From Cycas panzhihuaensis (Eukaryota; Plantae; Cycadophyta): DNA of 64,000 nt. Of the stretch, positions 47,145 to 51,260 are shown in pieces (positions within the stretch are counted from its first letter, which is position 1; every line of letters begins with the position of its first letter). Under the pieces are notes generated by a model, which saw only the letters and a list, made by a program, of their open reading frames with translations, did no database searches and was not told where the DNA came from. Position numbers and translations under genes: made by a program. The DNA lies in NCBI GenBank assembly GCA_023213395.1, contig CM041465.1:73725741-73789740 (forward strand). Direction: 5' to 3'.

Positions 47145-50100
47145 TTACCTCATCGTGTATGGATTCAACCTGCTACCATTTACCACCTTCGAAAGAATCT
47201 TGCCATCAAGTTGTCCGAGTTGGACTGCCCCATTCTTATTGATGCGAATTACCTTATAAGGCCCTAACCAGTGTAATTTCAACTTACTTGATTTTGTCCG
47301 AAATTTACTATCATACATCAACACCAAGTCGCCCTCATAAAATTTTGGCAACCGTAGGTGTTGATCATGCCAGACTTTTCGCTGTTGTTTCTCAGTTTTC
47401 AATTCCCACAATGCGCGTGCTCTTCTTTCATCCAGTTTCAACAACTCAATGACCCTCTCGTTCCACAAATCTCGTTCGTTCATTTGTAGCTGGAAGGCTA
47501 CTTGAAAGCTTTCTACTTGGAACTCCAATGGAAGTACCGCTTCTAAGTTGTAAACCAACTAAAAGGATGTCTATTTATGTGGCTATTTAATCGTTGTCCG
47601 ATCCGCCCAAAGGACAGAATGCAGTCGTTCTGCCCAATCCGTTTTGTCTTCGTTGCAAATCTTAGATAGCTATTTTTAAAATTTTATTGGTACTCTCAAC
47701 TTGGCCGTTAGCTCTAGGGTAATAGGGAGAAGACTAATAATGTTGAATCATAAATTCGTTAGTCAAATGCTTTATGGTACTATTTAAAAAACTACTACCT
47801 TGGTCTAATACTAGCTCCACGGGACAACCAAAATGGATAATGATATTTTCATACAAGAATTTTGTGATATTCATAGCATCACAATGCTTGAGGGATCGGG
47901 TTTCCATCCATTTTGTGAAGAAGTCGTCGGTCACTAGTATGTTTTTGGCATTTGTCCACTTTTCAGGAGGGCTTATTGGTCCGATGAAATCCAATCCCCA
48001 TTTCTCAAAAGTTGCTTGTACCAAAATCAGATCTAAGGGCATAAAAAGACATTTGTTGGGTTTTCCCATTCACTGACAAACGTCACAACTCTTTATCCAT
48101 CTCTCAGTATCTTCAAATATTGATGGCCACCAGAGACCTGCTAATAGAATTTCTGAACTATGGGTTCCAAGCCTTGATGTTTGGCTGTGACTCCTTCATG
48201 AACTTTTCGCAGGACGCCTTATACTTCGTGTTCTAGTATGCATCGTCTCAACACACCATCTGGACCAAGCTTATATAACATTCCTTGTATCAATTAGAAG
48301 GGAAAAGTTTTACAAATAAAACTTTGTCTTTCCACCCGTTCTAATCCCTTAGGTGTTTGGCCCATAGCCAAGTACTCTACAATCCCTTTGTACCATTTTG
48401 GTACAACCTCCACAAAAAATAATTAAGCATCAAAGAAATTGTCTGGTACTCCCGTAGCTAGTTCCCCATCCACTTCCTGTGATAGTACATCAAGTACAGT
48501 ATGTTTCTCTCCTTTTTTGACGATAATTTTGAAATTAAACTCTTGAAATAACATCAGCCAATTATTGATCCTACTCTGCAAAATGGGTTTGTTTATCAAA
48601 TATTTTAAGGCCTGATGATCCACAAAAAAGATAAACGGGTTGGCTAACAGATAATGTCTAAATTTTTGTAAGGCATAGACAATGCCTAAGCCTTCCCATT
48701 CAATAATCGAATAATTTTGCTCAGCATGCATCAATTTCGTGTTGGCAAAATAAATGGAAAAATCCATGTTACTACCCCCTGGTTGAGTCAAGACGCATCC
48801 AATTGCAATCAACGAAGCATCGACATGTATGTGAAATGGCCAGTCCCAATCTAGCAATCTCAGAATAGGAGCTTTTGCAATTTTCTTCTTTAATAATTGA
48901 ATGCCAATTGTTGTTGTAGCTCCCATCGCCAAGCTATTTTCTTCTTGAGTAAATTCTCCAAAGGGTTTGCAATCTGTGCATATTCCTTAATGAATTTACG
49001 GTAATAACTTGTCATGCCAAGAAAATCATTTACCTGCTTTGTTGTCTTTGGTGCGAGAAAATTTAAAATAATTGTTACTTTGCCTGGATCTATTTGTAAT
49101 CCCTCATTGGTCACGACGTGCCCCAATAAAAATCTGAAGGCAACCAAAATTGTACATTTCGTCGGGTTCAAACAGAGTTTACTTTTTCGACACATTTCCA
49201 ACATCAATTGCAGGTTTGCCAAATGATCCTTCAGCAATGAATAAATTGCCAAATCATCTAAAAATACTTCAATTGACTTACCAATTTTTTGCCGAAAAAT
49301 ATTCAGAATTATCCTTTGGAAGGTGGTCGATGCATTTGTCAATTCAAAGGGCATGACTTTATATGCACAAGTCCCCCACTCCGTAATAAAGGTTGTCTTC
49401 AACTGGTCTTGTGCTGCGATTCCAACTTGATTGTATCCACTAAAATCGTCTGTGAACGAATATACTTCGTGTCCAACTACCTTTTCAAGAATATCTTCAG
49501 TGAACGGTATTGGAAATGGATCCTTCTTCATTGCTTTGTTGAGGGCTCTGTAATCTACACAAACGTGAAGCTTTCCATTCTTTTTGGGTACCACCACTAT
49601 TGGACTTACCCATTCGCTAGTTTCAACTTCAAAGATGTAGCCAACCTCTAGTAGTTTGTCCAGTTCATCTTTTACCTTTTCCTTGTACTATGGATTCATT
49701 CGATAGGGGCACTATCGTACAGGGTTTGCTCCCTCTATCAGTTCAATCTGGTGTTCTCCCAATTCCAGCAATATCCGTTTTAAATCTTGATAAGACCAAG
49801 CAAAAACATCTTTGTATTCTGAAAATAAAATTGTAGCTTGTTAGACAGTGCCCTTGTCCTAATAATCTCCCATCGACATCATCTAGGGGTGTTCTTTTGT
49901 GCCCAAATTTATCTATTGAATGTTTAATTGTTCATTTTGCATCGTTCTACCATCTTCATTTAACCCATATGCTAGTGTTTGGTCGATTACTTGACTTCCA
50001 TATTCCATACTAAAATATTCAATGGGAATTTTGTGGTCATTACCTACTGCTTCAATTTTATAGTAACTTTGCTCAACCTCGGTCCCTAGGGCACTCAAAA

Positions 50101-51260
50101 TTTTTGGAACTCGTGAATCATGGTTATGGTACGTAAACGTTTTGCAAAACTCCTTATTGAGCGAATCCCAATTTGTCAACTTCAATTTTTCGCACTGATT
50201 GTACCATAAACTTGAGATTCCTTCAAGGGTCTGAGCCCATCTTTGCACCCATTCACATCTTGGAACTTGCTTTTTTTTCTAGACCTATTCACAATTCTTT
50301 ATATGAGTCGTGGGGTCATCACCATGTCGAAATATCGACAATTCATTTTCTTGTTTTTGAAATCTTGATAAAAAAGTTTTACGTAATTCATCCCATGATT
50401 TAAAATTGCTAACATAAACAGAAAACCATATAGCAGCTTGACCTTCAAGAGACAATGGAAACAACAAGTAACAAGAATCCACATGTTGATTATTACTCAT
50501 TAACAATCGAATACAATATTCTGTATGATTGTTTGTTTGGTTTACTTGGGCCTAGAATTTATTTCCATTTGTGAAACTCTCTCAAGTTCCTTATAATTTC
50601 TTCTGTTTGGGAAATTGTTGCTTCATTCTTTGAAATTGCTTGATCTTTTGATTCCAAAGGGTCCATACATACTTCCAATTTGTAGCATGGAGTGGATTCT
50701 GTTTCACCCTAGGCATTTTGCAACCAATTCATCATATACGTCGATGATGCACTGCTTGGTAAGGTCAGTTGTAACTGATATGCAATTTCTGAACATGGGC
50801 TCACAATGGGTTCTGATCCCACAATTGTGGACGATGCTCGTTCCTCATCTGCTATCTTCTCAATGTGAGGCCCGTCTTAGCATAATGATAAGGTCACAAC
50901 TTTGTTTCTTGCCTTTAATGTAAATGTAAACTCTCCCCAATCTTGAATAGCCTTTGTGGCTAATAGCCATGGCTTGCTCAACAATGTTGGATAAGCTCTC
51001 TTTTCGTTTTGCATATGCACCATTGCAAAGTCCATTAAGACGGTGATTCTTGCAACCGTGGCTGGTACATTCATCAACATTCCCATTGGTCTAACCTGCA
51101 ATTGATTAGCCAATCTTATTAAATAATCTAAGACAACCATTTCTGGCCTTCCTAATTCTATCCAAGAAGATTCAGGGAGTACATTAATTTATGATCCCCC
51201 GTCCACAATTGTTTTGCATAGCATCATCCCAAAAATGACCATTGGCACCCTGGGGTCAAC
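47145..51260 (-). pseudogene. pol remnant of element C (PR, two capsid-like repeats, RT, RH, INT)
   Basis: Supported by ORFs 50877-51140, 50285-50506, 49913-50248, 48890-49597, 48423-48932, 47734-48069 and 47145-47558. Confidence 0.9.

Follow-up and report, generated by a model that had tools for sequence, protein, structure and literature searches.

The 64,000-nucleotide stretch of Cycas panzhihuaensis contig CM041465.1 analysed here (positions 73,725,741 to 73,789,740, hereafter the window) contains no N, has a GC content of ~38% and is densely filled with nested long terminal repeat (LTR) retrotransposons. Its minus strand holds three decayed Ty3/gypsy elements, designated A, B and C. Element A is complete (10.6 kb, 52543-63142), with a 5-bp target duplication and the order Gag, protease (PR), reverse transcriptase (RT), RNase H (RH) and integrase (IN). 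Element C extends from 47139 to ~51700 and has the same Pol order as A and B, while its 5' end, LTRs and Gag lie outside what the window retains. Gag profile matches in the window were confined to A, B and an insert located between PR and RT in elements A and C, which is the subject of this report (Table 1).

The insert between protease and reverse transcriptase

Element C carries two tandem repeats between PR and RT, as the first-pass annotation of this DNA had described from the letters alone. They lie in one minus-strand frame that spans 50530 to 50135, and repeat 2 contains two stops. The frame of the insert continues into RT; the C protease is in a different frame, and the frame break falls between ~50650 and ~50550. 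Pfam finds two Retrotrans_gag matches in the C insert (40.6 bits against a cut-off of 24.1), covering profile positions 2-45 only. The same annotation had claimed homology to the A insert at low identity, and BLASTP aligned the two at 29% identity over 121 amino acids (E = 3e-14). Their local alignment score was 144, compared with a mean of 31, a standard deviation of 5.6 and a maximum of 63 in 2000 shuffles. The order PR, insert, RT holds in both elements.

Identity and fold of the module

Profile-profile comparison (hhalign) matched repeat 1 and repeat 2 to the Gag capsid N-lobe with probabilities of 87 and 97, versus less than 1 for the Gag C-lobe, and matched the two repeats to each other with a probability of 72. 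Repeat 2 together with the helix that follows it aligned to Gag capsid over 89 columns (probability 96), and the alignment stopped where the C-lobe core starts. The isolated helix gave no match to the C-lobe on its own. Because of the N-lobe matches, the C-lobe scores below 1 and the end of the alignment at the C-lobe core, we rejected a complete second capsid; judged by profiles and a predicted structure, the module consists of an N-lobe, a second N-lobe and one helix.

The structure was modelled for the homologue P0125 from an alignment of 123 rows, with a mean predicted local distance difference test (pLDDT) of 88.8 and a predicted template modelling score (pTM) of 0.77. In this predicted model, repeat 1 (20-90) superposed on the dArc1 N-lobe (Z 10.1, root-mean-square deviation (rmsd) 2.1, 71 aligned) and repeat 2 (102-168) on the rat Arc N-lobe (Z 9.9, rmsd 1.3, 65 aligned). 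Matches were also obtained to the Arc-stargazin complex 4x3h (Z 8.7) and to the N-terminal domain of the Ty3 capsid (Z 7.6), and the top 20 of 48,161 chains were all retro-capsid domains. The best Z of ~10 is under the value of 13 that the tool demands for helical proteins; the all-capsid top 20 and the sequence comparisons agree. No single alignment spanned both repeats of the whole module (rmsd ~15). Foldseek with the good model returned nothing at E ≤ 0.001 in PDB, where dArc ranked first, or in viral structures. A single-sequence search of PDB gave nothing useful, profile searches of PDB gave dArc only (E 0.1-0.7), and a shallow 5-row model (pLDDT 57) had no structural match.

Both repeats retain the N-terminal aromatic-glycine tail motif, repeat 2 has conserved polar residues of its own, and the fold motifs are retained despite 21-30% identity between families. 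An additional RNase H was ruled out as the identity of the insert. A recent copy of the element's own gag was rejected on the very low scores of the repeat profiles against the own-family Gag N-lobe. The module may have originated by capture of the 5' part of the capsid region of a gag gene, duplication of the N-lobe and loss of the C-lobe.

Distribution among relatives

A protein search with the A insert and the start of RT as query found 355 proteins, of which 120 were listed. The insert stood directly before RT in an open frame in 3 of these 120, and none of the 52 proteins outside the insert clade that span PR and RT contained the module. Metagenome loci were taken as the best 80 of 246 relatives with the RT pattern, ranked against an insert-bearing query, and gave 79 loci. 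PR and RT were both spanned in 26 of the 79; every one of these 26 carried both repeats, a count obtained with one profile set built including these loci and another profile built without them. The distance from PR to RT in the 26 loci was 876-1048 bases. Three loci with no insert upstream of RT (L009, L047 and L054) proved to be interrupted or deleted copies.

A normal Gag was present upstream in 10 of the 26 loci. These loci and element A have both Gag and insert, so the insert was rejected as C's real Gag; the module is additional to Gag. PR to RT was in one frame in 8 of the 26, Gag and PR were in one frame in 6 of the 10, and one locus, L032, has a single frame from Gag to RT. Most likely, the module belongs to a single Gag-Pol frame. 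Pfam run on L032, a typical member, gave no match to the module.

A search with a profile of five inserts returned 509 clusters (50% identity) at E ≤ 1e-3 and 151 at 1e-10; the 150 clusters listed were short open reading frame (ORF) fragments. Among 20 clusters looked up, one carried an organism name, Ginkgo biloba, and comprised three gene models. The Ginkgo repeat 1 scored 9.1 bits to the repeat-1 profile versus 20.4 to the repeat-2 profile, which makes it less certain that repeat 1 is homologous by position. A word-index search for long proteins with the insert found none, which is weak evidence, and no relatives were found in viral contigs. Contigs of three DNA runs cover the A and C inserts, so these are multi-copy family features and not single-copy accidents. 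For the A family, ~93,000 contigs were matched in one run and the insert was covered as evenly as RT, although this depth is no copy number.

In L032 (4390-4660) and in other loci, the 90 residues that link PR to repeat 1 are themselves conserved, with a ratio of nonsynonymous to synonymous substitution rates (dN/dS) of 0.14 from a single unsaturated pair. A Trp-Glu-Cys motif of this linker is visible in A, B and C, and the linker may be a further small domain.

Selection on the module

The dN/dS sample consisted of 16 frameshift-free loci (L057 and L033 were left out), in which 12 of 120 pairs were unsaturated. The ratios were 0.18 for repeat 1 (95% interval 0.12-0.27), 0.19 for repeat 2 (0.12-0.27) and 0.16 for RT (0.13-0.19). 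An earlier calculation on 13 of 153 pairs yielded 0.21, 0.20 and 0.17, respectively. The module is under purifying selection in the metagenome family.

Phylogeny, element B and the history of the repeats

The Pol tree was built on 896 columns with 31 of 54 rows, 23 short or redundant rows (including P0043) having been dropped. Elements A, B and C and the metagenome families formed one clade (support 99/98). The branch of the Vitis and Vicia proteins did not include this clade, and the branches nearest to it were a liverwort (Riccia), a fern (Adiantum) and further lineages. When presence and absence were mapped on this phylogeny, the module was restricted to that one clade. The proposal that the insert is an old, selected and lineage-defining feature, rather than a one-off rearrangement, is borne out as to age, selection and restriction to a clade by the distribution, the purifying selection and the Pol tree.

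Element B has no module. It had been described as having only an acidic linker at this position; neither repeat profile matched that linker, and in B the repeat profiles matched the true Gag only. The description does not go far enough, as both flanks of the C insert have homologous sequence in the linker of B (Table 1). The same flanks of A and of other families gave no match to C.

In the Pol tree, B was placed at the base of the clade with no resolved sister, and approximately unbiased (AU) tests rejected neither B with C, which implies loss (p = 0.275), nor the carriers without B, which implies primitive absence (p = 0.477). B was sister to C (88) in an RT-only tree from which 17 near-duplicate RTs with no insert had been dropped, and was outside the carriers (82) in a quick 54-row Pol tree. 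Since B shares both flanks with C and these meet in frame with four residues between them, loss in B is the better reading, and an in-frame loss is the most likely history to judge from the linker sequences. A faster change of the linker in other families could mimic the flank pattern. The suggestion that B serves as an internal control lacking the insert therefore stands in that the module is absent; ancestral absence is not supported, as B belongs to the same well-supported clade as A, C and the metagenome families and shares both flanks with C.

P0043 is a long-branch RT with no insert and a linker of 209 amino acids, which fell in or beside the insert clade in the RT-only and 54-row trees. 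It may represent another loss of the module, or an artefact.

The repeat tree (75 columns, 55 rows) bore on whether equivalent repeats group across families. Repeat 2 did so, with 23 of 24 rows, those of A and C included, together at 88/84. Repeat 1 gave no such grouping: it required 4 changes, a single repeat-1 clade was not rejected (p = 0.166), and the repeat 1 of C was nearest to generic Gag N-lobes. The subtrees of repeat 1 and repeat 2 mirrored each other, and profiles built from the metagenome loci only assigned the repeats of A and C to their correct positions.

Comparison with known systems

Membership of A in the Ty3/gypsy LTR retrotransposons follows from its LTRs, target duplication and domain order, and that of B and C from their Pol order. 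The treatment of plant Ty3/gypsy polyproteins in REXdb (PMC6317226) names as extra domains the chromodomain and the additional RNase H only, the latter lying between PROT and RT in TatI and TatII, of which TatII is from gymnosperms. The elements studied here are like TatI and TatII in being non-chromovirus plant Ty3/gypsy elements with an extra domain at the PR-RT position, but the extra domain is two capsid N-lobes and not an RNase H. A scan of the PR-to-integrase pieces of A and B, and of those pieces of C that hold the insert and RNase H, gave no Pfam match of the additional RNase H type, and tblastn left no room for one; in this the elements differ from Tat (TatI, TatII, TatIII, Ogre, Retand). 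The insert clade also lies outside the branch of proteins that bear the additional RNase H in the Pol tree. The C-terminal piece of the A integrase had no Pfam match to a chromodomain, and the clade is far from the RT in the window that we label chromovirus-like, which sets it apart from the chromoviruses.

Athila is characterized by an RT-RH-IN phylogeny within OTA, a tRNA-Asp primer site and an antisense 3' ORF, whereas the extra ORF of A is in sense; the clade lies outside the Vitis/Vicia branch in a tree built without a labelled Athila reference. The nearest Pol branches (Riccia and Adiantum) belong with the non-chromovirus lineages of mosses, liverworts and ferns that resemble Phygy and Selgy; like the insert clade, these branches have neither an additional RNase H nor a chromodomain. 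They lack the module, however, and A differs in its 5-bp target duplication, 10.6 kb length and extra 3' ORF from the 4-bp duplication and ORF-free state in the REXdb table (PMC6317226). The 18 bases of the A primer-binding site (62301-62318), in our reading, differ from the primer tRNAs given for Phygy, Selgy and Athila. The site resembles tRNA-Glu, a candidate primer type.

The predicted module has the four-helix fold and motif pattern of the Arc and dArc N-lobes and of the Ty3 capsid N-terminal domain (Z 7.6-10.1). In Arc and Ty3 a C-lobe follows the N-lobe, within Gag or a domesticated gene, whereas here two tandem N-lobes stand within Pol. RTL8, LDOC1 and Ty1 p22/p18 are likewise partial capsid proteins, and these act on full Gag; RTL8, as is the case for each repeat, consists of an N-lobe only. 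However, RTL8 and LDOC1 are single-lobe host genes, unlike a diverged, doubled and separate module in the element's own Pol, and Ty1 p22 is a C-terminal half made from within gag.

A survey of pine repeats (PMC3762812) lists Gag domains, and no second one appears in the relevant part of it. Our literature search, whose scope ended short of Repbase entries, subscription journals and newer REXdb lineages (e.g. Tatius), found no prior description of an N-lobe pair carried in Pol. The insert is a real variant of Ty3/gypsy architecture, and one that has probably not been described before. A doubled half-capsid would be the third extra Pol domain of plant Ty3/gypsy elements, beside the chromodomain and the additional RNase H. 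It distinguishes an abundant lineage that does not match Tat, the chromoviruses, Phygy or Selgy of the 2019 REXdb, and Pfam misses it in typical members such as L032.

Possible functions of the module

The analysis shows the fold of the module, its layout in two copies, its place in Pol, its presence beside a normal Gag, its restriction to one clade and, in the metagenome family, selection. By analogy with capsid proteins studied elsewhere, we tentatively favor a docking function, in which the pair of captured N-lobes in Pol binds the N-lobe rings of Gag and carries RT, RNase H and integrase into the particle. The module would be translated within one Gag-Pol reading frame, would bind to N-lobe rings of the Gag shell and, once bound, would bring RT-RH-IN into the particle, the benefit being packaging. 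The C-terminus of the capsid N-lobe points into the shell. Loading of RT-RH-IN appears the likeliest pay-off because the module is encoded in cis, is selected and occurs in abundant families. In dArc capsids, the penta- and hexamer rings are built from N-lobes (PMC8121366). PEG10 particles take up RTL8, an N-lobe-only protein that binds the N-lobe of PEG10 (PMC11684626).

Several points weigh against docking. The repeat profiles scored at most 6.1 bits against the own-family Gag N-lobe (9 sequences) and up to 26.9 against other Gag N-lobes, so there is no sign of own-Gag mimicry. A single Gag-Pol frame already joins Pol to Gag, and a tether would be required only where processing comes before assembly or where Gag is produced separately as well. 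Sequence of the B type is multi-copy (~17,000 contigs per DNA run), so the module is probably not essential. Incorporation of RTL8 lowers the yield of PEG10 particles (PMC11684626). Ranking against an insert-bearing query favors insert-bearing copies among the 79 loci, and the dN/dS pairs share sequences and were measured in the metagenome family, not in C.

The yield effect of RTL8 would also suit an assembly brake. A half-capsid pair released from Pol may act as a dominant-negative brake, entering N-lobe rings without the lattice contacts of the C-lobe and so limiting or shaping assembly, either of its own family as copy-number control or of competing and parasitic elements. We consider this a less likely explanation. 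The module has no C-lobe, half-capsid genes retain the N-lobe fold (PMC10516033), the Ty1 p22 Gag fragment is an element-encoded product reported to restrict transposition, and the repeats are closer to Gag N-lobes of other lineages than to their own. The abundance of the A family, with the insert covered evenly with RT, does not suit a brake; a pure self-brake would be expected to vanish fast, and the module persists in all 26 loci. No conserved start codon before the module was seen by eye.

An Arc-like adaptor or decoy is also unlikely, in our estimate. Its N-lobe pocket would bind short host or element peptides and serve in targeting, in transport or in soaking up a host factor that recognizes capsids. 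The top structural matches are Arc N-lobes, the stargazin complex among them, the polar residues of repeat 2 are conserved in their own right, and mammalian Arc holds ligands in this pocket (PMC8121366). The same pocket in dArc is filled by its own N-terminal tail, and stargazin binding to dArc was not seen (PMC8121366); both repeats here keep the aromatic-glycine tail motif, and a common fold shows no function.

That the module lies directly between PR and RT, that model confidence is good globally over both repeats and that isolated dArc lobes oligomerise (PMC8121366) would suit a cis-acting oligomerisation or folding module, which would bring Pol molecules together, thereby controlling when protease is activated or stabilising RT, and would not touch Gag. 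We regard this as improbable, since B and all 52 outside relatives manage without the module. A neutral passenger, or a nested gag fragment that is propagated with a successful family, would fit the absence from B and the poorly resolved monophyly of repeat 1, but is largely refuted by the dN/dS of ~0.19 and is very improbable given also the constant PR-RT spacing, the fold motifs retained at low identity and the mirrored repeat subtrees.

We would give nearly even chances to a wider proposal, that a gymnosperm-wide Ty3/gypsy lineage not described before may have evolved a second capsid-derived protein in Pol. This would be a rigid N-lobe pair that joins Gag rings and either loads the element's own enzymes or jams the particles of rivals, and for the half-capsid genes of mammals it would be the first counterpart that an element encodes. 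The lineage offers a natural and compact test of how elements with a single Gag-Pol frame load their enzymes, and of whether N-lobe-only proteins, which are domesticated regulators in mammals, were first invented by elements, with family B as a close comparison lacking the module.

Other features of the window

Table 1. Coordinates of the insert, its flanks and the surrounding elements in the window
Feature	Position	Strand	Evidence or remark
C repeat 1, capsid N-lobe-like	50360..50545	-	Pfam PF03732; repeat-1 profile 14.6 bits vs repeat-2 profile 7.6
C repeat 2, capsid N-lobe-like	50135..50341	-	Pfam; repeat-2 profile 39.4 bits vs repeat-1 profile 0; two stop codons
C conserved helix 3' of repeat 2	50087..50134	-	Aligns to first helix after Gag N-lobe; no C-lobe part follows
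C upstream flank of insert	50652..50760	-	Homologous to B linker: score 56, z 7.7, 0/500 shuffles
C downstream flank (pre-RT linker)	49916..50062	-	Homologous to B linker: score 67, z 9, 0/500 shuffles
C protease	50901..51275	-	tblastn and profile match
C RT-RNase H-integrase	47139..49930	-	Interrupted by stops and frame breaks; scanned part shows no additional RNase H
B junction of the two insert flanks	22194..22207	-	Four residues between flanks, in frame; ~590 bases at the same place in C
B Gag, protease, RT, RNase H, integrase, without module	19386..24342	-	Profile, Pfam and tblastn evidence
A 5' LTR	62319..63142	-	92% identical to 52543-53370; 5-bp target duplication
A true Gag	61003..62208	-	Pfam Retrotrans_gag 42.7 bits; Ty3_capsid E 1e-4; complete capsid domain ~61039-61512
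A protease	59609..59980	-	Pfam Asp_protease_2; profile match
A repeat 1	58706..58909	-	Repeat profile matches
A repeat 2 and following helix	58424..58684	-	Pfam and profile matches; one stop codon in the element A copy
A RT-RNase H-integrase	55484..58240	-	No additional RNase H and no chromodomain match
A extra 3' ORF, sense	53469..54275	-	No meaningful Pfam match; 66% DNA match to 7274-8355 in element D
A 3' LTR	52543..53370	-	Pair of the 5' LTR at 62319..63142
Element D	9021..10037	-	A-family derivative: linker and ~first 30 codons of repeat 1, then jump to integrase C-terminus
Copia gag upstream of C, interrupted by A	52050..52532	+	Pfam Retrotran_gag_2 E 1.5e-20

The nesting of the region (52050-64000) is such that the Copia gag replaces the 5' end of C, and A is inserted into the Copia gag. 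The deletion in element D runs from early repeat 1 to the C-terminus of integrase, and D is possibly a non-autonomous form. Elements A and D share a conserved sense ORF 3' of integrase (53469-54275 and 7516-8196, minus strand), which has no Pfam family and whose C-terminal end is predicted to be coiled, as judged by eye. A tandem repeat with a unit of ~69 bases (54865-55117) lies between the A integrase and this ORF. The nucleocapsid region of the insert clade contains several Cys/His knuckles at differing distances, where one or two are usual (60498-60932; 23300-23750; L032 3030-3550). Another Ty3/gypsy Pol, distantly related and open over long stretches, is present at 897-3565 on the plus strand and served as outgroup.

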